Origin: an uncultured bacterium | GTDB taxonomy: Bacteria > Chlamydiota > Chlamydiia > Chlamydiales > SM23-39 | Length of the DNA: 64,000 nucleotides | Direction: 5' to 3' | Assembly: GCA_963716985.1 (NCBI GenBank) | Contig: OY970323.1 | Location: 640,001-704,000 of the forward strand | In this document: in pieces, positions 14,282-64,000 of the stretch | How the letters are laid out: each line of letters opens with the position of its first letter | How positions within the stretch are numbered: position 1 is the stretch's first letter | Made by a program: the position numbers and the translations under genes | Notes under the pieces: model-generated | What the model was told of the DNA's origin: nothing | The model's database searches: none | The model's input: the letters and a program-made list of their open reading frames with translations, nothing else

Positions 14282-14332
14282 CTCTTTTCTTGAAGGAAAG
14301 CCTCTGAGCTGTTATACATTTGCTTCTTTCTT

Positions 14333-14405
14333 GCTGGCGTAGCTCAACTGGTAGAGCGCCCGACTTGTAATCGGATGGTTGAGGGTTCAAGTCCTTTCGC
14401 CAGCA
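14333..14405 (+). tRNA. tRNA-Thr(TGT)
   Basis: GCTGGCG...CGCCAGC acceptor stem, anticodon loop CTTGTAA. Confidence 0.97.
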
Positions 14406-14417
14406 ATCACGTATTAA

Positions 14418-14500
14418 GGGGGCGTCGCATAGCGGCAATTGCAAGGGACTGTAAATCCCTCGGTCTATGACCTCCGTTGGTTCGAGTCCAACCGCCCCCA
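14418..14500 (+). tRNA. tRNA-Tyr(GTA); integration target
   Basis: GGGGGCG...CGCCCCC acceptor stem, anticodon loop CTGTAAA, long variable arm GGTCTATGACC. Confidence 0.97.
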
Positions 14501-14628
14501 AAAAACCACCCCGCAAATGCGGGGTTTTTTGTGGACGGAGGAAGCCAATAATTTGGCTTCCGTTTGGGACTCGAAGGGAGGTACTCCGTCGACAAACAAG
14601 CGGTAGGCCCGGAGTCCAACCGCTTCCA
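14501..14628 (+). repeat. tRNA-trailer structured repeat, copy 1 (terminator hairpin, second hairpin, anti-T-loop segment, tRNA 3'-end relic)
   Basis: CCCCGC-AAAT-GCGGGG-TTTTTT; GGAAGCCAA-TAAT-TTGGCTTCC; GGGACTCGAA; ends GAGTCCAACCGCTTCCA. Confidence 0.75.
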
Positions 14629-14867
14629 ATTTTTATAGACAAAATTCTCTCAAAAAACCAAGCCCTAAAAAAACCCGAAAAGTGCGCTTCAAAATCCCGA
14701 ATGGGACACTGGTGGGACAGCAGTTATTACGAGTTTTCAAAGATAAAGGCGTTAAATGAATCGCACTTTTACTCAAAGGGTGCACATACTCATCTTATTC
14801 GGCTTGATAAATGGCTGCTGTGTCGATATATAAATAAATTGATCATTAGAAAGAATGTAGGGAATAA

Positions 14868-16586
14868 ATGACTACTCATGGTGTTCCAAGTCCAAATGAA
14901 CCATCTTTTTTGATAATTAATTCGTCTTCTCAAATAGATTTGTCCAGAGCACGTGTTGCCTACGAGGGCGCGATTAGCAACCCACGAGAGCGACATGCTG
15001 AAGTGGGTATTCTGTTACCCAATGGGAAGGTTCAATATGCCAGACTTGGCAAGAATGAAGAATATGGGCCGCATCGTGTAGGGTCGGTTACAAAGACATT
15101 CACGACATTTTTAGCCTTAAAACTTGCTAAAGATGGGGTATTGCCTCAAGGTTTGAAAACGCGTTGCGGCGACCTTCTTTCAAAGGAAATTCTTGCAAAA
15201 ATATTTGAAGATCCTGCGGCTGCGGAAAATATGACATTAGAGCAGCTTCTTTCCCATACAGCGGGTCTTGAATTAGATGATCATAGTCGCCAACAAGAAA
15301 TTCGTTCTTCTACAATGCATGAGCGTTTTCTACAGGAGGGCCAAGAAGGCCGTAAATTTAAACATACAAGTCAACCTGGAGATGGAATTGGTTCTTATAG
15401 CAATGCTGGGGTTGCGGTTGCGGGTTGGATGTTAGAAGTTGCATATAATAAATATAACGGAAAAGAGACGCCGGTCATTCCCTTTTCTCAGATCATGAAA
15501 AGAGAATTATTTGAAGGAGTTTTTGGATTGTCTGGGCCTTTTATTGGGCCTGCACCTTCTGAGGATATCATCCAGACTCCTGCCGGTGGTATGACATCAT
15601 CCATCGGAGATCTTATGAAAGTTGCCGCCCGTCTTCAGCAAGGAGAAGCTTCTCTTGAGCATTTCTTTGGAAGCGGTTGGCAAAGGGCCATGTTAACGCC
15701 CCGTGATCTTCTACAACATTATGGATTAGGATGCCATGCCAATGCTTCTTCTATTGAACATGCGGGTCTGACTCAAGAAAAATTTGGGGATGAGGCGCGG
15801 GACACTACTGCTTTGGTCGTTTTTCCTCTAGGTCCTGAAAAAGCTGGTTTAGCCGCGATGTGCGATTCAAGTGCACTTGGCCCCGCGCTACAAGAACAGA
15901 GATTTCTCAACGCTTTGAAAAAAAGTGCTGGTATTTCACATATAGAAGAGCCAGAACCTATTTACGATTTGGATTTCTTTTGCCCAGAATCACCGAACGC
16001 TATTCTCTTCCACGGAGATGTTTATCTGATTACGGATGTAGATCCTTTCGCTCTAGTTCCTCCAGAGAGGATTATCTGTACTCGCAATGGGATGAAACAT
16101 GTGCTTGTCCGAGATGCTTCTATCGATAAAAAGGATATCCGTGGGTATCGAGATGAACATGGAAAACCATGGGTTGTCATTTCAAGGGAAGATGGGCGCA
16201 AAGCAATTTATAGCGATTATTGTTTGCTCACCGAAGTGGTAAAGACAGGGGATTTTGCCTTAGCACAACCGGATTTGGTTAGTGTTCAATCATTACAAGG
16301 AGAGTATCGGGATACTGAGACGTTAGGAGAACATCCAATTTATTTCTTTACTGAAAAAAATGGGCACCTTTACATGCGAGAGCGTAATGATAAAATTAGT
16401 TATCCTTGTCTATACATTCCGGACGATGTGGGTGGAGGAGGAGCATGGGTAGTTAGCAATCCAGATGGTCGAAAGATCAAATTTCGATTTCCTAAAAATC
16501 CAGATAGCGACTTCCTTGTAATCACAGATATTCTTATGGGTGTTCCTCAGTTCCCGCCGAAAAGTAAAAGAACTCGTCGCGTATAA
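14868..16586 (+). CDS. Serine hydrolase, beta-lactamase-related (class C-like) family, with C-terminal extension
   Basis: SxxK (GSVTKTF), LLSHTAGL and YSN (SYSNAG) motifs. Confidence 0.8.
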   Translation: MTTHGVPSPNEPSFLIINSSSQIDLSRARVAYEGAISNPRERHAEVGILLPNGKVQYARLGKNEEYGPHRVGSVTKTFTTFLALKLAKDGVLPQGLKTRCGDLLSKEILAKIFEDPAAAENMTLEQLLSHTAGLELDDHSRQQEIRSSTMHERFLQEGQEGRKFKHTSQPGDGIGSYSNAGVAVAGWMLEVAYNKYNGKETPVIPFSQIMKRELFEGVFGLSGPFIGPAPSEDIIQTPAGGMTSSIGDLMKVAARLQQGEASLEHFFGSGWQRAMLTPRDLLQHYGLGCHANASSIEHAGLTQEKFGDEARDTTALVVFPLGPEKAGLAAMCDSSALGPALQEQRFLNALKKSAGISHIEEPEPIYDLDFFCPESPNAILFHGDVYLITDVDPFALVPPERIICTRNGMKHVLVRDASIDKKDIRGYRDEHGKPWVVISREDGRKAIYSDYCLLTEVVKTGDFALAQPDLVSVQSLQGEYRDTETLGEHPIYFFTEKNGHLYMRERNDKISYPCLYIPDDVGGGGAWVVSNPDGRKIKFRFPKNPDSDFLVITDILMGVPQFPPKSKRTRRV

Positions 16587-16650
16587 TAGCCTCGAGAGTC
16601 CCTGAGTTGGTGCAATGTTAATGCTAGCAAAACTTTTGAAAAGTCTACAA

Positions 16651-17022
16651 TTATCTCGCAAGGGCAGCAATTGATGCACGGGATGGCGAATCACCAATCA
16701 TCGTGCTTCCATGTTCTTGATGAGAAGAAGGAACAATGGAAATATAGACATCCTGCCCTAAATCGTTTAGAAATCTCAATAAACGTTCCAGAGAAAAACT
16801 TTTTAGGTATCCTCTCAATAGCAAAGATACTTTAGGTTGATCGATTTTTAAGATTTTGGCTACTTTAGATTGAGTCAATTTCTTTTTCTTAATGATTTTA
16901 CTGATTTCCCAAGCAAGTTGTGATTTAGCAAGAGCTTTTTCTGGATTTGGAACACCTAAATCAGCAAAAACATTCCCAGAGCTTTCTTCATATTCAATAT
17001 CTTTATATTTTTTTTTCTTCAT
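16651..17022 (-). CDS. XRE-family HTH antitoxin (HigA-like)
   Basis: SSGNVFADLG...LTQSKVAKILKIDQPKVSLLLRG...FSLERL; downstream of a RelE-like gene. Confidence 0.88.
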   Translation of the reverse strand: MKKKKYKDIEYEESSGNVFADLGVPNPEKALAKSQLAWEISKIIKKKKLTQSKVAKILKIDQPKVSLLLRGYLKSFSLERLLRFLNDLGQDVYISIVPSSHQEHGSTMIGDSPSRASIAALAR

Positions 17023-17039
17023 AACTTCTCCTCATGAGA

Positions 17040-17390
17040 TTACTTCAAAAGAGCTCTCGCTTCTTTTAGGCGTTGTTTAATGATTTCTATTTCATGTCTT
17101 GGAGTAGCAATACCACATTTTGATTTTTTCTGGAAAACATGTAGTACAACCACAATTTCTTTAAATTCAACTGTATAAACAGCTCTGTATGTTCCGCTAG
17201 AATCATTTTCACGAATTTCCCAGATCTTAGCGCTGTCAAATCCTCTGAGTAATTTTGCCGATGGAGGAACTTCGCCTTTCTGCACGCCTAATAGTGCGTG
17301 GCCAACTGCTCTATGCACTCTGTCTGGAAATTCTTTTAAGTCAAAGCGACTTTGTCTTATCCATATGATGCGCTTCATATCGATATCCAA
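17040..17390 (-). CDS. RelE/ParE-family toxin (HigB / Gp49-like)
   Basis: WEIRENDSSGTYRAVY...VLHVFQKKS...TP; toxin-first order with an XRE antitoxin. Confidence 0.88.
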   Translation of the reverse strand: MDIDMKRIIWIRQSRFDLKEFPDRVHRAVGHALLGVQKGEVPPSAKLLRGFDSAKIWEIRENDSSGTYRAVYTVEFKEIVVVLHVFQKKSKCGIATPRHEIEIIKQRLKEARALLK

Positions 17391-17413
17391 AACTATCTCA
17401 ATTCACAATCAAT

Positions 17414-17431
17414 TATGCCTATATGGGCATA
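17414..17431. promoter_or_regulatory. Palindromic operator upstream of the HigBA-like pair
   Basis: TATGCCTATATGGGCATA is a near-perfect inverted repeat just upstream of the toxin start. Confidence 0.6.
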
Positions 17432-17467
17432 TTATTGCGAAAACAATTTTTGGACCATATGAATTTT

Positions 17468-17660
17468 TGGGACACTGGTGGGACAGCAATCCCTTGAAAC
17501 TACCAAAAACACCCAACAAGAAACAATAATTATTTTACCACAAGACGCTTGTTTTTAGATTGATAGGTATTGATTAGGGTTGATAGAGATTGGATTCCGA
17601 CTGACTGTAAATCCCTCGGTCTATGACCTCCGTTGGTTCGAGTCCAACCGCCCCCAAAAA
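17468..17660 (+). repeat. attR-like site type A (arm motif, ~115-bp arm, tRNA-Tyr 3' half)
   Basis: tRNA identity starts at the anticodon loop; the ~135 nt upstream aligns with 31616-31750. Confidence 0.85.
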
Positions 17661-17789
17661 TAAAACCCGCAAAATGCGGGTTTTTTTATTTTGGGGGCGA
17701 GCAAGCCAATAGTTTGGCTTGCGTGTTGAGACTCGAAGTGAGGAGCTTTGCGACGAACTGGCGGGATTCCCGGAGTCCAACCGCCCCCA
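17657..17789 (+). repeat. tRNA-trailer structured repeat, copy 2
   Basis: CCCGCAAAATGCGGG hairpin; TTGGGGGCG (antisense to the acceptor strand); GCAAGCCAA...TTGGCTTGC hairpin; GTTGAGACTCGAA; ends GAGTCCAACCGCCCCCA. Confidence 0.8.
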
Positions 17790-18210: not shown

Positions 18211-18312
18211 CTAGTGCTCTGCCATTCTTTAATTTTAGGATAAATTGACTTGAGTTTATGCCGACCGTTGCCAAACTTATAATCCTAAATTTTAACTATG
18301 ACAGAGCACTAG
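18211..18312 (+). mobile_element. 102-bp MITE (CTAG-flanked), copy 1, inside the IS66 left TIR
   Basis: CTAGTGCTCTGCCAT...ATGACAGAGCACTAG with ~27-bp imperfect TIRs; identical to 25416-25517. Confidence 0.9.
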
Positions 18313-22969: not shown

Positions 22970-23621
22970 TCTTTGTGCCTGGCATGAATAAGACCTAATC
23001 GGTGAAAGTCCGATCGTAACCCAGAAAGGAGGGAATACGTAGACGAAGAGGCAAGGGTGTCCAAAGAAACCTTTACGAGCTGCTGAGAAACCAGACAAAA
23101 CAGAATCGAAAAAGGCCAATGCGGAATCTGAAAGAAGCCTAATCAAATTTGCCACCTAAACGAAAGTGAACCTTCGTAAGGCAGGAGAAGAGGGTGAGAT
23201 AGCTGACAGTATCAAAACCCAAAATCCTTTACGTATCCCTCTCAAGTAGTGAAGGTGGGTGGGCAAAGAAAGGGATTATTCTTACCCAGGGAGAATCCGT
23301 TGGGAAACCGGAGACATGTAACTACGACATAGATCTCCTAAGCACTACAGCGATGTGGATGTTACGGACCAAAGGATTTCGGATTCGGTCATAGTAGTCG
23401 TAAAACTGTGAGCCTAAGAGGGTGTGGTGACACACCTGAGGATAAAACTCATAGAAAGAGACGCGAGTCGAGGCGAAGGACCGAACATGTTAATGTGCAA
23501 ACTCTAACATCTGAAGCTATTGTTCTGAGATTTGAAGAAACCACCTCAATCCAAAAGAACATCGTAATGTTCCCGGAGGAAAGAGGAATCGACGAAAGAA
23601 CAATACAAAAGGAGAAGCGAA

Positions 23622-25136
23622 ATGAACAAGAGCAAGCAACTTGAATTTCAATTTCAAACAGATCTCTTCGAGCAGATCTGCGCACTTGAAACTCTCATGG
23701 AAGCTTTTAAATCCGTAAAACGGAATAAAGGGGCCCCTGGGATAGATGGAATTACCATCGAAAAGTACGAAGAAAATCTCGAAGAGAACCTGAAACAGCT
23801 CAAGGCAGAAGTTTTGAGTTGGATATATAAACCAACACCCGTAAAACGAGTGGAAATACCAAAACCAGGAGGAAAAGGGATCAGATTGCTCGGAATTCCT
23901 ATCGTAAAAGATAGAGTTCTCCACATGGCAATAAAGATGGTTTTAGAGCCCATCATAGATCCCACATTCTCAGAAAACAGTTTTGGATTTCGTCCTGGAA
24001 GGAACCAACAACAAGCGGTTCAACAAGCTCAGAAAATCGTGCTATCAGGAAAAGAGTATGTAGCGGACATAGATCTTTCGAAATTCTTCGATAGGATCAA
24101 CCACGACAGGCTCATCTACAGACTGAAAGGACACGTAAAAGACCCAAGAATTTTAAAGCTAATCGGAATGATCTTGCGCGGAGGAGTCATGATAGATGGG
24201 GTTAAAACTCCATCAGAAGAAGGATCTGTACAAGGCAGTCCATTAAGCCCGCTCTTGAGTAACGTTGTCTTGGATGAATTAGATAAAGAACTGGAAAAGC
24301 GCAACCTGGAGTTCTGCCGTTTCGCTGATGATTGCAACATATTTGCAAAATCACAGAGAGCAGCAGAGAGAATCATGCAATCGATAAAGAAATTTATCGA
24401 AAAGAAACTCAAACTCAAGGTCAATGAAGAAAAGAGCAAAACCAGAAAATCGAAAGAAGTAAAATTTCTAGGCATGACGATCATCGAAGGAACAATAACC
24501 ATCGCCAAAGCCGCTTATGATAAGGCAATGGAGAAGGTGAGAAGTATGATTCCTAGAGGATCCCACCTACCCATTGAGAAAGCCATGAAAGAAGTAAACA
24601 CATGGTATCAGGGATGGGCATCTTACTTCAAGATGACCCAATACCCTTCTCAACTGAGGGGGATAGAGGCTCATATCAGGAGAAGATTTAGAGCCCGAAT
24701 CATTTATCCTAAAAACGGCAGTTGAACCGCTCTGCATGACCTGAAAATTGTAAATTTCTCTCTCAGAAATAAATTCTATCTTGAACTTTCACGCCCACCC
24801 AATAGGTGAGTGGATAAATTTGAGCAATAACATTGATTTTTAGAGGAGAATCGCGAAAGTTTTGATTGTGCGGAGCGGTTCAACTGCCGTTTTTAGGTTT
24901 ATCAGCAAAAGAAGAAAAGAAATCTTCTTTCGTTGCTGCTGAAAAGAGGAATAGAGAAGAAAAGGGCAGGTAAAACGGTATACTCCAACCGAGGCACTTG
25001 GAATCTGTCTCATACAGCAGTCCTAGATAAAGCTTTTTCGGTAAGATGGTTTATAGAACAAGCAGGACAAATAATAATTTCCAACGTAACAATGAGACAT
25101 TGGTTCGAGATTGAGAAATGGGTAAAATTAACATGA
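23622..25136 (+). pseudogene. ltrA: Group II intron reverse transcriptase/maturase, interrupted by a MITE
   Basis: NKGAPGIDG, IPKPGGKGIRLLGIP, GFRPGR, DLSKFFDRINH, QGSPLSPLLSN and RFADD motifs. Removing the MITE and one TTTAT copy restores ...RARIIYQQKKKRNL...WVKLT* (~439 aa, no endonuclease domain). Confidence 0.92.
24708..24897. mobile_element. 190-bp MITE with 5-bp TSD
   Basis: TIRs CCTAAAAACGGCAGTTGAACCGCTC and GAGCGGTTCAACTGCCGTTTTTAGG; TSD TTTAT at 24703-24707 and 24898-24902. Confidence 0.92.
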
Positions 25137-25224
25137 AGAGCCGTGTACGGACCCGTACGCATGGTTCTGTGAGAGGACGGAGCCCAAAGAGGGCTCCTCC
25201 TACTCGGCCCTCAGGGCAATCGCA

Positions 25225-25410
25225 TTAAAAAATGAGTTTCTTCAGTATAAGCAATGGACTAGCCAAAAGCTTTGACCAGTCAAAAGTTCTGAATCCGTCC
25301 AGTCGCCCCCATTCTCATGGACGATTCTTGAATTCCAGCATCGTTAAGAAGGGTTCTCTCACTTGTACTGAGAGATTCATGCCATTCAACTGCAAGTACT
25401 GAATGCGTTC
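25225..25410 (-). pseudogene. C-terminal relic of a large serine recombinase, spanning an attP-like tRNA-Tyr T-arm core
   Basis: Minus-strand ...LQLNGMNLSVQVREPFLTMLEFKNRP*EWGRLDGFRTFDWSKLL...IF*; overlaps plus-strand GTCCAGTCGCCCCCA. Confidence 0.65.
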
Positions 25411-25415
25411 AGCCA

Positions 25416-25517
25416 CTAGTGCTCTGCCATTCTTTAATTTTAGGATAAATTGACTTGAGTTTATGCCGACCGTTGCCAAACTTATAATCCTAAATTTTAA
25501 CTATGACAGAGCACTAG
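25416..25517 (+). mobile_element. 102-bp MITE, copy 2
   Basis: Identical to 18211-18312; CTAG at both ends. Confidence 0.9.
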
Positions 25518-26375: not shown

Positions 26376-27228
26376 TTATGACTTGGGTAGCTTACCAGAT
26401 TCTACAATTAGTTTTTTCTCTTCTGATTTTACGCGGCGTTCGAGTTTTTTGAGGTCTTCTTCTGGAGGAAGATTTTCTGGTTTGATACCGCGCTGTCCGA
26501 GCATAGAGCGGACGCTTTCATTATTTTGAACATGCTCATTTGCTATAGCCGTTTCTCCATGTAAATCATCCTGCGATACATTGTGATTAGTCATTTCTGT
26601 CGCTAAATTTTTTGCGGCGATAGTCAGTGTAGGTAAAAAATCTGCTAACGGGCGACACTGTGTAATCCCATATTTGTTCTTCATGGTCTGCGTGCAATGA
26701 CCTCCAAAAAGAGCCTGATCGCCCTTAGAGCGAATTCGTCCAAAGCCAGGCTCGTCTACGCCGCGCTCAAATATTTTGAGAAAGAGTTTTTTCAGCCTCC
26801 CTCAGTTTTTCTCTGGTCTCTAATCTGGCTTGCAAGAGCATGCGACTTTCGATCAATTCCTGTTTGCGTGTTTGAATGGCAAAGTAGCTCTGGGCAAAAG
26901 CGATGGGTTCTTTGCGAGAGTCTCCGTTTTGAGCGATCAGATAGCAGGCATAGCGGGTTAACATGAAGTCTTCAATGGCCCGTTCTGCTCCCTTGCCGAG
27001 ACTGATCATTTTCCTGACGCCACGAAAATGATCGTTCGGATCGCAGCCAGTTGTTTTACAAGACTCTATGGCGCGCATAATCGTGGTGAGAAAGTTTTCC
27101 CACTTCGCATAACCCAATGGCTCTTGCAAGTCTCTAGCAAACCAAAATTCAATGCTTTCTTCGGGAAGCATTTGTGCTAGACTGTCAAAATGACTTTGCA
27201 ACTTTGTAATGATCTCGTTGTTAAACAT
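26376..27228 (-). pseudogene. dinD: DNA damage-inducible protein D, frameshifted
   Basis: EFWFARDLQ, LTRYACYLIAQNGD, AFAQSYFA; frameshift at SQNI(Y)ERGVD (~26769); then RSKGDQALFGG...RPLADFLPT...PENLPPEED. Confidence 0.88.
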
Positions 27229-27289: not shown

Positions 27290-27362
27290 CCAATCAAAAG
27301 TTCTGAATTCGTCCAACCGCCCCCAATAAAAAAAGGCCCCGCAAAAGCGTTTTTTTATTTTT
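27290..27362 (+). repeat. att-like site type B (recombinase tail + tRNA-Tyr 3' 15-mer) and truncated trailer
   Basis: CAAAAGTTCTGAATTC-GTCCAACCGCCCCCA; the minus strand reads WGRLDEFRTFDW. Confidence 0.8.
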
Positions 27363-29450: not shown

Positions 29451-29621
29451 CCAAGCAAAAGTTCTGAATGCGTCCAACCGCCCCCAATAAAAAATTACCC
29501 CACATTTCGCGGGGCTTTTTATTGGGGGCGAGCAGGACAACTGCTTGGCTTGCGTGTTGAGACTCGAAGTGAAGCGCCATGTAGGGCGCGAACCGGCGGG
29601 ATTCCCTGAGTTCAATCATCC
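29451..29621 (+). repeat. att-like site type B plus tRNA-trailer structured repeat
   Basis: CAAAAGTTCTGAATGC-GTCCAACCGCCCCCA (minus: WGRLDAFRTFAW), then a hairpin, TTGGGGGCG, TTGGCTTGCGTGTTGAGACTCGAAGTGA and GGCGGGATTCCC. Confidence 0.8.
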
Positions 29622-29952
29622 GCAAATTTATCTATGGAAAATACCCCGGAAAATATACCTTGAAAAACTCAAAAGATTTTGTTAGATTTATTATCTATTC
29701 TTGGAGATTTTTTTATGAGGCTTAATGTTGACTTTTCTTGGAATAACAAAAAGAATAAAGGGCAAGTCGTTATTGTTTATGAAAATCGTATGTCCTTAAA
29801 AAATTATGGCAGATCCGAGCTTCCCATCCTTTGCTACATGGAGAAAGTCCTTGAACATTTGGCCTTTTTGCCATGACTTTTTAAGGATGTCCTTCATTTC
29901 GGCTAAGAGATTGCAAATTGCTCATCACTTCAATTTCAACTTTCCTCCTTTT

Positions 29953-30558: not shown

Positions 30559-30672
30559 TTAAAAGGTCAAATTTTCTGCTTTTGGGATCATCATATTTTT
30601 GATTGATTCCGCGGGGGTGGGAATATTTTCAGGAAAAGTACCGCCAATTTCTTCAATTGCTGAACGCGCTGG
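30559..30672 (-). pseudogene. Relic of a DinD-like C-terminus
   Basis: RSAIEEIGGTFPENIPTPAESIK resembles the DinD tail pattern IxELGGTMPExLPTP. Confidence 0.5.
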
Positions 30673-30763
30673 GAAACTTGGAGTTTGGGTTACGTTTGAG
30701 GCTCGAAGAGGGGAGCTCCGTCGACCAACTGGCGGGAAGATTTCCGGAGTCTGACCATCCCCA
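30672..30763 (+). repeat. Degenerate tRNA-trailer structured repeat
   Basis: CGTTTGAGGCTCGAAGAGGGGAGCTCCGTCGACCAACTGGCGGGAAGATTTCCGGAGTCTGACCATCCCCA aligns with copies 1 and 2. Confidence 0.7.
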
Positions 30764-31615: not shown

Positions 31616-31891
31616 TGTGGCACTGGTGGGACAGCAATACCTCGAAGCTATCAAAAACACTCAACAGATAACAATAATTATTTTGCCACAAGATATTTGT
31701 TTTTAGGTTGATAAGCATTGAGAATGACTGTGGAAGATTGGATTTCGACTGACTGTAAATTCCTCGGTCTTCAGGCTTTCGTTGGTTCGAATCCTAAACG
31801 TAAGCCAACTACTTGGCTCACGTTTGAGACTCGAAGTGAAGCACCAGGCAGGGTGCGAGCTGGCGGGATTCCCGGAACCCAACAGCCTCCA
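31616..31891 (+). repeat. attR-like site type A (diverged) followed by a trailer repeat
   Basis: TGTGGCACTGGTGGGACAGCA, then an arm homologous to 17468-17602, then GACTGTAAATTCCTCGGTCTTCAGGCTTTCGTTGGTTCGAATCC, then AAGCCAACTACTTGGCT...TTTGAGACTCGAAGTGA...GGCGGGATTCCCGGAACCCAAC. Confidence 0.8.
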
Positions 31892-34388: not shown

Positions 34389-34472
34389 CCAATCAAAAGT
34401 TCTCTGATCGCGTCAACGAGATGAGTCGCTACGTCGACGAATGGGCGGGATTTCCGGAGTTCAACGCCGGCA
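34389..34472 (+). repeat. Degenerate att type B / trailer relic
   Basis: CCAATCAAAAGTTCTCTGATCGCGTCAAC (minus: LVDAIR, frameshift, TFDWEK), then CGTCGACGAATGGGCGGGATTTCCGGAGTTCAAC. Confidence 0.6.
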
Positions 34473-39778: not shown

Positions 39779-40129
39779 TCAATCGCGATAGTCAAAGCGG
39801 CGGAGACGTTTTTTTTCGCGTTCTTTTGACTTTTTGATTCTGTTTTTGTTCGCGATAGATTTGGATGGGCGCGTCGGGATGCGCTTTGGTTTTCTGTAGT
39901 TGAGCTTTGCTACTGCGTTGCGTAATTTCTCAAGACAATCCATTTTGTTCAAATATTGACTTCGCTCTTTTTGACTTGTGACGATGATTCCTGTTGGAAT
40001 ATGGGTAAGGCGGACGGCGCTGTCGGTGACGTTGACATGCTGACCCCCCTTTCCGCTGGCGCGGCAAGTGGTGATTTTGCACTCTGCAAGAAGCTCTTCA
40101 TCCGACGAGGGAAGATGGATTTTAACCAT
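39779..40129 (-). CDS. Peptidyl-tRNA hydrolase, ArfB/YaeJ-like (GGQ)
   Basis: [28 protein letters not shown] and a basic C-terminal tail. Confidence 0.85.
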
Positions 40130-40430
40130 AGTTTGTTTCACCCGTGTTTTTATTGGCAGAATTGACCAGAGCAAGTTTTTCATTCCGGCTCAATTTCTTG
40201 ATGGCCATCTCTTGTTTTGAGGCGTCCGAGCGGTTGGAACAGGACTTGCGAAAGACCACTCTTTTGGGACTTGAAAAATAAAAAAAACGCGCTCCTTTTT
40301 GCTTTTTCTGGTGCTGCCGGAAGCGGCGGCCCAGGTTGTTGGTGATGCCCGTATAAAACTTGCCCGCTTTGGTTTCGATCACATAAACTTCCCATTGAGA
40401 TGGTGCCGACCTCTTTATTTTGCATTCCAC
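40122..40430 (-). CDS. GIY-YIG nuclease family protein (UPF0213-like)
   Basis: VYVI....[13 protein letters not shown]...GARF...A.K.E..IKKLSR. Confidence 0.85.
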
Positions 40431-63331: not shown

Positions 63332-64000
63332 ATGACGTCTCGGATCGATTTTGCTTCCGTAAACAGGATGGCCAGACGATCGATCCCGATGCCAAGGCCG
63401 CCTGTCGGGGGCATTCCCTGGCAGATGGCTTCAAGGAATTCTTCTTCCAGAGAGAATGTCTCCTCTTTCTCGATCTTCTTTTCTGCTTGTTCGGTCAAAA
63501 GTTTGCGCTGGAGGATCGGGTCGTTCAATTCGCTATAGGCGTTGCAGATCTCGCAGCCGTTGATGAAACTCTCAAATCGCTCGACGAGCCCCTCTTTTCT
63601 GGAGGCGTTTTCTCTGTGCAGTTTACAGAGCGGCGTTGTCTCAATGGGATGGTCGGTGATGTGGTGGGGTGAGATGAGTTTTGCTGAAACTAGCTCTTCG
63701 AACAGAGTGGCAATCAAAATACCTCTCGGTGCGCCTTTTACTATCGTTTCGTCGACCTTCCCTTCCTTCATCAAAAGGCGGCGCATTTGTTCCTCATTTA
63801 ACTGATCCACATCGATGTTGGCATAATGGTGAATGCTCTCTTTCATGGTCATTCGCTTCCAGGGAGGGCGCAGGTCGATGGTTTGAAAATTGCCGTCGGG
63901 TGTGGGCACGCGAATTTCGGCTCTTCCCAAAAGGTCTTGGGCAATTTTTTCGAGCAGAGACTCGACGAATTGCATCACATCATTGTAATCCCAATAGGCG
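63298..64000 (-). CDS. lysS: Lysine--tRNA ligase (3' part; starts beyond window end)
   Basis: ERFE.FING.EICNAYSELNDP and GMPPTGGLGIGIDRL...IRDVIYFP motifs. Confidence 0.97.
   Translation of the reverse strand, partial: AYWDYNDVMQFVESLLEKIAQDLLGRAEIRVPTPDGNFQTIDLRPPWKRMTMKESIHHYANIDVDQLNEEQMRRLLMKEGKVDETIVKGAPRGILIATLFEELVSAKLISPHHITDHPIETTPLCKLHRENASRKEGLVERFESFINGCEICNAYSELNDPILQRKLLTEQAEKKIEKEETFSLEEEFLEAICQGMPPTGGLGIGIDRLAILFTEAKSIRDVIYFPLMKPEDS

Follow-up and report, generated by a model that had tools for sequence, protein, structure and literature searches.

A chlamydial family of tRNA-linked repeats whose inverted arm follows the local tRNA gene

What is a structured trailer of about 130 nucleotides doing behind the end of a tRNA gene, and why does it return several times over the 20 kb that follow? 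The window, by which is meant the whole stretch of 64,000 nucleotides analysed here (G000:C1:640001-704000, part of a 2.07-Mb genome, G000, in a single contig), carries tRNA-Thr(TGT) and tRNA-Tyr(GTA) at 14332-14500; small islets are stacked over the 20 kb downstream of this pair (with addiction modules, hydrolases, IS66, a group II intron and a split dinD), and no integrase was found in them. The genes present, together with the labels of related genomes, suggest an environmental chlamydia. An initial annotation of this DNA had listed the trailer at seven places, a stub among them, and every one is found at its coordinates (Table 1). The details need some revision: the third copy, given as 29487-29621, is real and its direct arm runs on to 29624; the stub at 27326-27362 is real and another, at 25281-25311, had been left out; and the statement that tRNA 3' ends flank each copy fails for those at 30672 and 34420, whose 5' parts are lost. 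Copy 1 lies behind the full tRNA and copy 2 behind a displaced half that matches it perfectly, which implies that an islet came in at the anticodon arm and either brought a unit with it or displaced one. (The displaced half is called as a tRNA by ARAGORN; its Rfam score is 13.8 bits.)

Table 1. Features of the tRNA-Tyr locus and its trailer copies, in window coordinates
Feature	Position	Strand	Remark
tRNA-Tyr(GTA), target gene	14418..14500	+	positions 57-73 at 14484-14500; CCA not encoded
Copy 1, spacer hairpin (tip of the fold-back)	14501..14529	+	terminator-like on both strands, 14508-14525
Copy 1, inverted copy of tRNA 65-73	14530..14538	+	7/9 match
Copy 1, side hairpin, 9 bp, 4-nt loop	14540..14561	+	splits the inverted copy at 65/64
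Copy 1, inverted copy of T-stem/T-loop (64 to 54)	14565..14575	+	terminal GAA
Copy 1, core (GAAG, hairpin 2, hairpin 3 ending CCCG)	14573..14611	+	somewhat decayed
Copy 1, direct copy of tRNA 57-73	14612..14628	+	15/17 match
Integrase-less islet, full tRNA to displaced 3' half	14629..17602	.	beta-lactamase-family gene; HTH_37/Gp49 addiction-module-like pair
Displaced tRNA-Tyr 3' half, attR-like	17603..17656	+	54/54 identity to 14447-14500
Copy 2, most intact	17657..17789	+	core extends to 17772
Copy 2, arms	anti-acceptor 17692-17700; side hairpin 17701-17722; anti-T arm 17726-17737	+	
Copy 2, direct arm	17773-17789	+	17/17 match
Copy 2, module common to the E. coli tyrT repeat	17738-17757	+	
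Islet-end motif fused to decayed tRNA-Tyr end (from about position 59)	25281..25311	+	without trailer
Stub: islet-end motif, tRNA-Tyr end (27311-27326), spacer hairpin only	27295..27362	+	
Copy 3: islet-end motif, tRNA end 29472-29487, full unit	29456..29624	+	hairpin 2 of another type
Copy 3, direct arm, decayed	29608-29624	+	
Copy 4	30666..30763	+	decayed; 5' part lost
Copy 5: decayed tRNA-Tyr 3' half truncated in the T-stem, side hairpin 31800-31821, core	31751..31891	+	
Copy 5, direct arm	31875-31891	+	
Copy 6: islet-end motif, 3' half of core, decayed direct arm	34394..34472	+	
Small stand-alone GIY-YIG gene	40122..40430	-	5.6 kb from the last copy; candidate enzyme only

The trailer is not confined to the window. 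A profile made from seven copies, five of them window copies, scores those five at E 2e-27 to 2.5e-19 and the sixth (34422), which lies outside the profile, at E 5.8e-6; the best match in the reversed genome is E 0.17. Nine clear copies are found in G000 in this way: the six of the window and three behind tRNA-Leu and tRNA-Phe ends (tRNA-Leu(TAA) at 325772, a displaced Leu(TAA) 3' half at 63980, and tRNA-Phe at 429698), with a partial tenth match at 1943667. The last belongs to a tRNA-Tyr end that has been translocated well away from its gene and carries a partial unit, with an inverted-repeat insertion inside (L004, G000:C1:1943617-1943828). The displaced Leu(TAA) 3' half (L001) and the full tRNA-Leu(TAA) gene (L002) lie 260 kb apart and differ in their T-stems, the displaced fragment carrying the T-stem allele of the sister genome G001.

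Several other elements share the neighbourhood. A conserved motif of islet ends (core CAAAAGTTCTGA) is joined, near base 59 of the T-loop, to the 3' ends of tRNA-Tyr, tRNA-Leu and tmRNA: in the window at 25281, 27295, 29456 and 34394, elsewhere in G000:C1 at 1742974 and 751146, and at L037, L048, L078, L086, L145, L147 and L259. No integrase was found near it among 49 ORFs, 48 of them around islet ends, which belong to small cargo islets. A second islet-end sequence (17467-17602 and 31621-31750) precedes tRNA-Tyr halves cut in the anticodon stem, and is present in L044, L048 and L098 as well. The first islet holds a beta-lactamase-family (PF00144) gene of 572 aa at 14868-16586. The group II intron extends over 22970-25209, with a reverse-transcriptase/maturase ORF at 23622-24725 and further pieces elsewhere in G000; its reverse-transcriptase region is interrupted by a MITE-like repeat of about 195 bp (24703-24901), and a second MITE-like repeat, of about 102 bp, stands at 18211-18312 and 25416-25517 (each has many near-identical copies in G000). 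The dinD-like gene (26376-27228) is in two ORFs; at the same tRNA-Tyr locus of L048 it is a single ORF of 284 aa. Two further tRNA genes of G000, tRNA-Leu(tag) at 1343860 and tRNA-Leu(caa) at 1758985, are followed by a related pair of trailers, starting ATC(T/C)CCGGAGACATT, that is unrelated to the chlamydial unit.

To find the family beyond G000, a loose pattern that proved noisy over 101 genomes was replaced by a covariance model built from 42 cores. Besides G000, the model has matches in 24 of the 60 further genomes searched within the family, and in 2 of 40 genomes taken from the order's other families, with 1-17 matches in each positive genome; its weaker matches (16 loci and 20 regions were inspected) lie nearly all behind a tRNA or tmRNA end and have further core modules. 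A core-only pattern run over the GTDB collection gave 53 loci, of which 40 are true units (two pairs overlap) and 13 are chance matches without a tRNA. Units in bins labelled Ignavibacteriae or Verrucomicrobia are not taken as evidence of spread to other phyla, since the gene upstream of L080 is syntenic with a chlamydial locus. (L079 and L080 are on an Ignavibacteriae-bin contig with chlamydia-like synteny at tRNA-Thr/Tyr, and probably mis-binned.) For comparison of the arms 49 tRNA-proximal units were parsed and one, assigned to a neighbouring tRNA-Glu, was dropped; the 48 that were kept are kin and not independent. They sit at 12 tRNA types, to which the ends of Ser(cga), Arg(tct) and tmRNA bring three more, directly downstream of the RNA gene and one to five per locus. 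The literature searched held no description of the family; two older papers on tRNA-linked repeats lay outside that search.

A unit is built as follows. After tRNA base 73 come a spacer hairpin, the reverse complement of positions 73-65 and, about one base further on, a 9-bp hairpin. Some two bases later follow the reverse complement of positions 64-57, a GAA that mirrors T-loop positions 54-56, the core, and a direct copy that begins at position 57 (at 58-59 in some variants). Units measure 95-205 bp, with a single outlier of 629. The 9-bp side stem is perfect in 44 of 48 units and has a 4-nt loop in 43. The direct arm (positions 57-73; CCA is not encoded) is complete, 17/17, in 25 of the 40 units in which it was scored, while 8 of the 48 have no scored arm. 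In 17 of 42 units at G57 tRNAs, GA replaces TC before the GAA. Two units of one genome (L088, L089) differ in the side hairpin: one has it, and the other, lacking it, is a perfect inverted copy. The layout first proposed for the trailer fits the copy at 17657; it is a composite and not that of the copy it was attached to, 14501-14628, whose anti-acceptor segment is TGTGGACGG (7/9), whose anti-T arm is TGGGACTC, and whose direct arm matches at 15/17. The spacer varies, being short and AT-rich in many Phe, Lys, Pro, Ser and Leu-taa units; a plain intrinsic terminator (GC hairpin and T run) accounts for the spacer alone. Behind some arrays (L145, L161, L168, L174) there is a further hairpin module, of the CATGCG...GCGAAGC...CGCATGC type.

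Do the arms follow the tRNA next to which they lie? Of its 11 variable positions the inverted arm has on average 8.6 in agreement with its own tRNA, against 4.1 with other types (48 units), so that the check set by the initial annotation, whether the antisense segments follow tRNA identity, comes out positive. Single positions tell the same: TT stands at the mirrored place in 6/6 units at A57 tRNAs and in 0/42 at G57 tRNAs, and T-loop positions 59-60 are mirrored in 41/48. In a slightly mis-registered test the unit's own tRNA ranked alone in first place among 41-42 for 23 of the 35 inverted arms and for 31 of the 35 direct ones; none of 20,000 permutations reached the observed mean. Alleles are followed too: those of tRNA-Tyr at T-stem positions 63-64 are mirrored in 13/13 units, three of them with one extra base (rows read by eye). 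Beyond base 73 the inverted arm complements the genomic trailer at 108 of 132 bases, against only 28 of 132 for TGG (that is, for CCA); its template is accordingly the gene or the unprocessed precursor and not the mature tRNA. (A tRNA-primed retroelement is rejected on the same count, the arm having no TGG start such as a primer-binding site would have.) The inverted arms are imperfect copies, and some depart from the tRNA now beside them: L002 and L052 have two arms that both suit a different allele of that tRNA, while L165, L169 and L171 retain only the universal part of the anti-T arm.

We class the trailer with the tRNA-linked repeats (TLRs), as a chlamydial variant of them. The reading that we prefer, and to which we give roughly even credence, is that it is a gene-less, modular, palindromic, non-autonomous DNA insert targeted to the T-loop of tRNA and tmRNA genes. 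It rests on what is directly observed: the anatomy, the matched arms, the filled and empty orthologous sites, the tandem arrays, and the modules that are common to the E. coli TLRs and REP-like palindromes. The copying of the inverted arm from gene or precursor, the fixed geometry of the side hairpin, the lack of a G-T excess and the varying RtT copy number in E. coli also speak for it. The tiny mobile element that the initial annotation had suggested thus stands as the best reading, its mobility being something that we infer. How it would work may be put in five points: 1) In single-stranded DNA the inverted arm would pair with the 3' end of the gene or with the direct copy, making a three-way junction of fixed geometry. 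2) A nuclease or recombinase acting in trans would cut at the T-loop and add a unit, leaving the tRNA whole. 3) Fold-back or template-switch synthesis would rewrite the inverted arm from the local gene, and such rewriting would let one core fit many tRNAs. 4) Units might also travel as passengers on islands entering the same tRNA gene, which would produce the stack of copies in the window. 5) The number of units may expand and collapse by recombination between the 17-bp repeats.

Comparison of genomes speaks to gain and loss. At seven tRNA loci (Lys, Leu-tag, Leu-gag, Met/Ile2, Thr-cgt, Pro-tgg, Ser-gct) relatives have a unit where G000 has none, the flanking genes being syntenic. The same sites are filled in G000 and the sister genome G001, with core modules that differ at the orthologous Phe, Leu, Tyr and copy-5 sites (at the last, L044, it is hairpin 2 that differs). 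The identity of filled sites in this pair fits vertical inheritance and so tells against a DNA insert. Tandem arrays reach five core matches (L100), some with uniform and some with mixed cores, and slippage between direct repeats explains the uniform ones without any enzyme, again to the disadvantage of the insert. By our own reading of 11 arrays, the direct arm nearer the tRNA equals or surpasses the distal one in intactness in 8, the order is reversed in 1, and 2 are unscored, a pattern that slippage would produce too. Four DNA runs of sparse cover showed no joint that removes the trailer alone and no strain-level empty site. (A joint from 14463 to 17773 was set aside: other letters lie between, and it looks like another organism's tRNA-Tyr.) Behind one tRNA-Thr(CGT) stand two units in inverted orientation, like a REP doublet (L167, G019:C145:2800-4200).

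Might the trailers then be passive scars? On that account REP-like palindromes landed behind tRNAs only one or a few times, and island traffic, slippage and quasi-palindrome repair did the rest: the spread, the duplication and the matching of the arms. Most window copies do lie behind island-end fragments, no enzyme is linked to the units, and template switching is known to homogenise the arms of inverted repeats (PMC8604942). What makes the account unlikely is that one core is found at 15 RNA-gene types with the same 65/64 split and the same junction, for which repeated, precise retargeting is needed. There are also units directly behind full tRNAs with syntenic genes on either side (L138), and the core was absent from the viral, phage and plasmid sets searched: five scans of IMG/VR viral contigs were empty (three) or gave chance and REP-like matches only (20 loci and 33 loci in the other two), with no tRNA-linked unit, and in the plasmids and phages searched only the terminator-like part was found.

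The structure of the unit raises a different alternative. Folded with DNA parameters, most of 35 units form one long hairpin that runs from the T-loop to the GAA, with the side hairpin as a three-way junction; the predicted fold-back over T-arm and acceptor strand is indeed the minimum-energy DNA fold in most units, and the terminator-like hairpin of the initial annotation, present as it is, turns out to be the tip of this one long fold-back, which begins in the tRNA T-loop. Copy 2, folded alone, pairs its inverted arm with its own direct arm. Copies 1, 2 and 5 fold better than shuffled sequences (z -5.1, -6.6 and -3.0), while copies 3, 4 and 6 do no better than shuffles (z -0.4, -0.2 and +1.1). 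RNAalifold, given a 23-sequence alignment, returned the side hairpin and hairpin 3 only (-4.8 kcal/mol); since it missed the long arm helix, the structure that was tested was drawn by hand. On a MAFFT alignment the paired cells of this structure amount to 86.5%, against 75.4% in shuffles and 25-50% when it is slid along, a contrast with shuffles that is inflated because the structure was derived from the same sequences. The helices do covary, as had been claimed for the second hairpin: 18 of 26 pairs of the hand-drawn structure are changed on both sides in the MAFFT alignment. In hairpin 2, Watson-Crick pairing holds for 87 of 93 inner pairs, as compared with 35% for swapped partners, and tandem GA mismatches flank this hairpin on the sense strand.

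These are features that an RNA device might be expected to have: co-transcribed with the tRNA, the inverted arm and the downstream direct copy would form a tRNA-like acceptor/T helix to be processed off as a small RNA (as RtT and RrB), or else the inverted arm would pair with the pre-tRNA, tuning processing or termination. The strong covariation and the sense-strand GA mismatches count in its favour, and so does the folded unit's mimicry of the top half of a tRNA, with a hairpin in place of the D and anticodon arms; the E. coli TLRs, moreover, are transcribed and processed, and an RNase E signal has been suggested for them (PMC8144298). Taken whole, in either version, the proposal is quite unlikely. 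G-T pairs are not in excess over A-C (5 vs 9 in the side hairpin; 5 vs 7 and 5 vs 2 in the arms), so that neither strand is favoured as RNA. A terminator-like hairpin precedes the inverted arm in many Tyr and Leu-caa units, and copies persist and decay behind fragments that do not look transcribed. In G000 a unit stands behind no more than 4 of 42 called genes (two Tyr calls, Leu-taa and Phe), and the covariance model finds none in 36 of the 60 family genomes searched, many genomes being incomplete.

If the unit is a DNA insert, what enzyme would move it? The 83 downstream ORFs scanned (of 87) are mixed island cargo, with no common neighbour gene, no tyrosine recombinase and no HUH protein among them; an rve integrase-core fragment, a DDE transposase and a group-II-type reverse transcriptase occur once each. 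G000 has 11 tyrosine recombinases, and in one region (G000:C1:878000-970000) three tRNA-Met calls and six tyrosine-recombinase genes cluster, which suggests a tandem island array. Y1 transposases show no co-occurrence with the unit (9/24 positive vs 13/36 negative genomes; none in G013, G016 or G052), and those of G000 are ordinary IS200-type genes adjoining group II intron pieces. Extra GIY-YIG genes are found in 4/24 positive vs 2/36 negative genomes and in G000, and are absent from G013, G019 and G052; GIY-YIG matches are mostly frames of about 600 aa, presumably UvrC. A small GIY-YIG nuclease is a weak lead. The want of a common neighbour gene and of a co-occurring Y1 or GIY-YIG gene weighs against the insert, as do the imperfect inverted arms and the transcription and processing of the E. 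coli TLRs.

The last alternative is that the unit is an attC-like site for single-stranded recombination, by which cargo cassettes are captured at tRNA genes. It is highly improbable. In its favour, folding of the strand does restore the tRNA end in double-stranded form with a defined bulge; islets of 1-3 kb without an integrase are stacked in the window; and a second conserved motif, that of the islet ends, joins tRNA-Tyr, tRNA-Leu and tmRNA ends at about position 59. Against it, none of the 14 integron-integrase model matches in the genome passes the cut-off (the best has 85 of 265 bits), the cargo genes lie on both strands and not one per site, many units have no cargo, and three islet ends of the window have no intact unit. 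The attC-like logic of the initial annotation is thus not supported.

How does the chlamydial unit compare with known systems? The primer-binding site of LTR retroelements is a stretch of about 18 bases complementary to the 3' end of a tRNA; the chlamydial complement, in contrast, goes on into the genomic trailer, and no reverse transcriptase is linked to it. With the ends of IS200/IS605 elements and the GTAG REP/RAYT systems the units share, if our reading holds, a GAAG at the foot of a hairpin and the picking of a target by single-stranded base pairing (PMC6006769). They differ in having no Y1 co-occurrence, no GTAG, a duplication of 17 bp, and an arm some 20 bases long in place of 4; a REP/RAYT or IS200/IS605 MITE is rejected, no Y1 transposase being linked or co-occurring. 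Integrase-driven islands at tRNA and tmRNA genes (Islander, PMC4383910) likewise leave the gene whole and put a displaced 3' fragment at the far end; the chlamydial units, in contrast, are 95-205 bp long, have no integrase, use one core for many tRNA types, and contain an inverted copy of the target.

Closer likenesses are found among palindromic repeats. For the REPs tagged CGTC/TGTC a dedicated transposase is reported absent (PMC3733652). They are, like the chlamydial units, short palindromes with no dedicated transposase known, and an inner module is common to both; unlike them, the chlamydial units are without the terminal tag and REP stem, are few per genome, and lie nearly all at tRNA or tmRNA ends. 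Membership of the CGTC-tagged REPs is rejected, there being no terminal CGTC/TGTC tag with an 8-9 bp stem and no dispersal. A metagenome scan for the module required a GARTCC tail (which is therefore no evidence) and gave 39 loci, 38 of them examined: in 12 the type-A core module is the apex of GTCAT-tagged REP-like palindromes, 4 are behind a tRNA end with a direct copy of 15-17/17 (three unlike the chlamydial units), and one REP-like locus is directly behind a GIY-YIG gene.

The closest comparison is with the TLRs of E. coli. As set out in PMC8144298, the first account of these dates from 1978, and they are credited with 'no known function'; between one and five of them follow a tRNA or rRNA gene immediately, ending in 18-19 bp identical to the 3' end of the upstream gene. 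An older role in processing and the stringent response, restated in a preprint (10.1101/2024.07.17.603846), was retracted, according to PMC8144298. In that article the word 'inverted' is absent, and the passages with 'complementary' or 'antisense' are on other matters; Rudd 1999 and Bosl and Kersten 1991 may mention the arm. No Rfam family is matched by the chlamydial units, in agreement with the initial annotation: at the gathering threshold only tRNAs and group II intron parts are found, at loose E-values sub-threshold terminator-like leaders. Membership of Rfam RtT is rejected on a score under the gathering threshold; RF00391 finds nothing in 5/5 chlamydial genomes while its E. coli control is positive, and conversely the chlamydial covariance model finds nothing significant at two E. 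coli loci (best E 0.22). Since the whole-unit models do not cross-match, the chlamydial units are, on the evidence of sequence comparison, relatives of the E. coli TLRs by architecture and modules and not RtT members.

The E. coli TLRs (RtT/rttR of tyrT-tyrV, RF00391, and those of the lysT cluster) also stand behind tRNA genes in 1-5 copies (annotated RtT copies number from 0 to 4 in the 30 E. coli genomes listed out of 5,426), with a direct copy that begins in the T-loop, at 58-59 as against 57 in the chlamydial units. They too have an inverted arm: the K-12 Tyr units contain an inverted copy of positions 59-68 (10/10 at tyrV, 9/10 at tyrT) followed by GAGAA, which also follows the inverted arm in 17 of 48 chlamydial units. 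In the K-12 Lys units the arm matches its own tRNA at 9/10 in four of five, vs 7-8 for Tyr (lysQ has only 7/10). An anti-5S arm was not found in rrB. The chlamydial inverted copy is longer (54-73 and on into the trailer) and has the 9-bp hairpin inside, which the E. coli units examined are without. The tyrT unit of K-12 holds the core module of copy 2 at 17/17 fixed bases (200 shuffles reach 15 at most; the module was picked after seeing it), and a CGGCCC-GAA-GGG module is common to E. coli units and L140.

Only tentatively, and with more doubt than conviction, can one go further: TLRs may be a prokaryote-wide class of DNA elements without genes, forming a reprogrammable, guide-directed system of T-loop insertion in which a self-carried inverted arm pairs with the target and is rewritten from the host gene, with E. 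coli RtT as a resident member, the CGTC REPs as relatives, and a nuclease acting in trans (small GIY-YIG/COG2827-like proteins are the lead) as driver. Be that as it may, the inverted arm of the chlamydial family is customised base by base to the local gene over many tRNA types and in a fixed geometry, which points to an as yet unknown means of finding tRNA genes, where mobile DNA chiefly enters. The Tyr and Lys repeats of E. coli carry the same arm and a common core module, and the old TLR question is testable in E. coli K-12.
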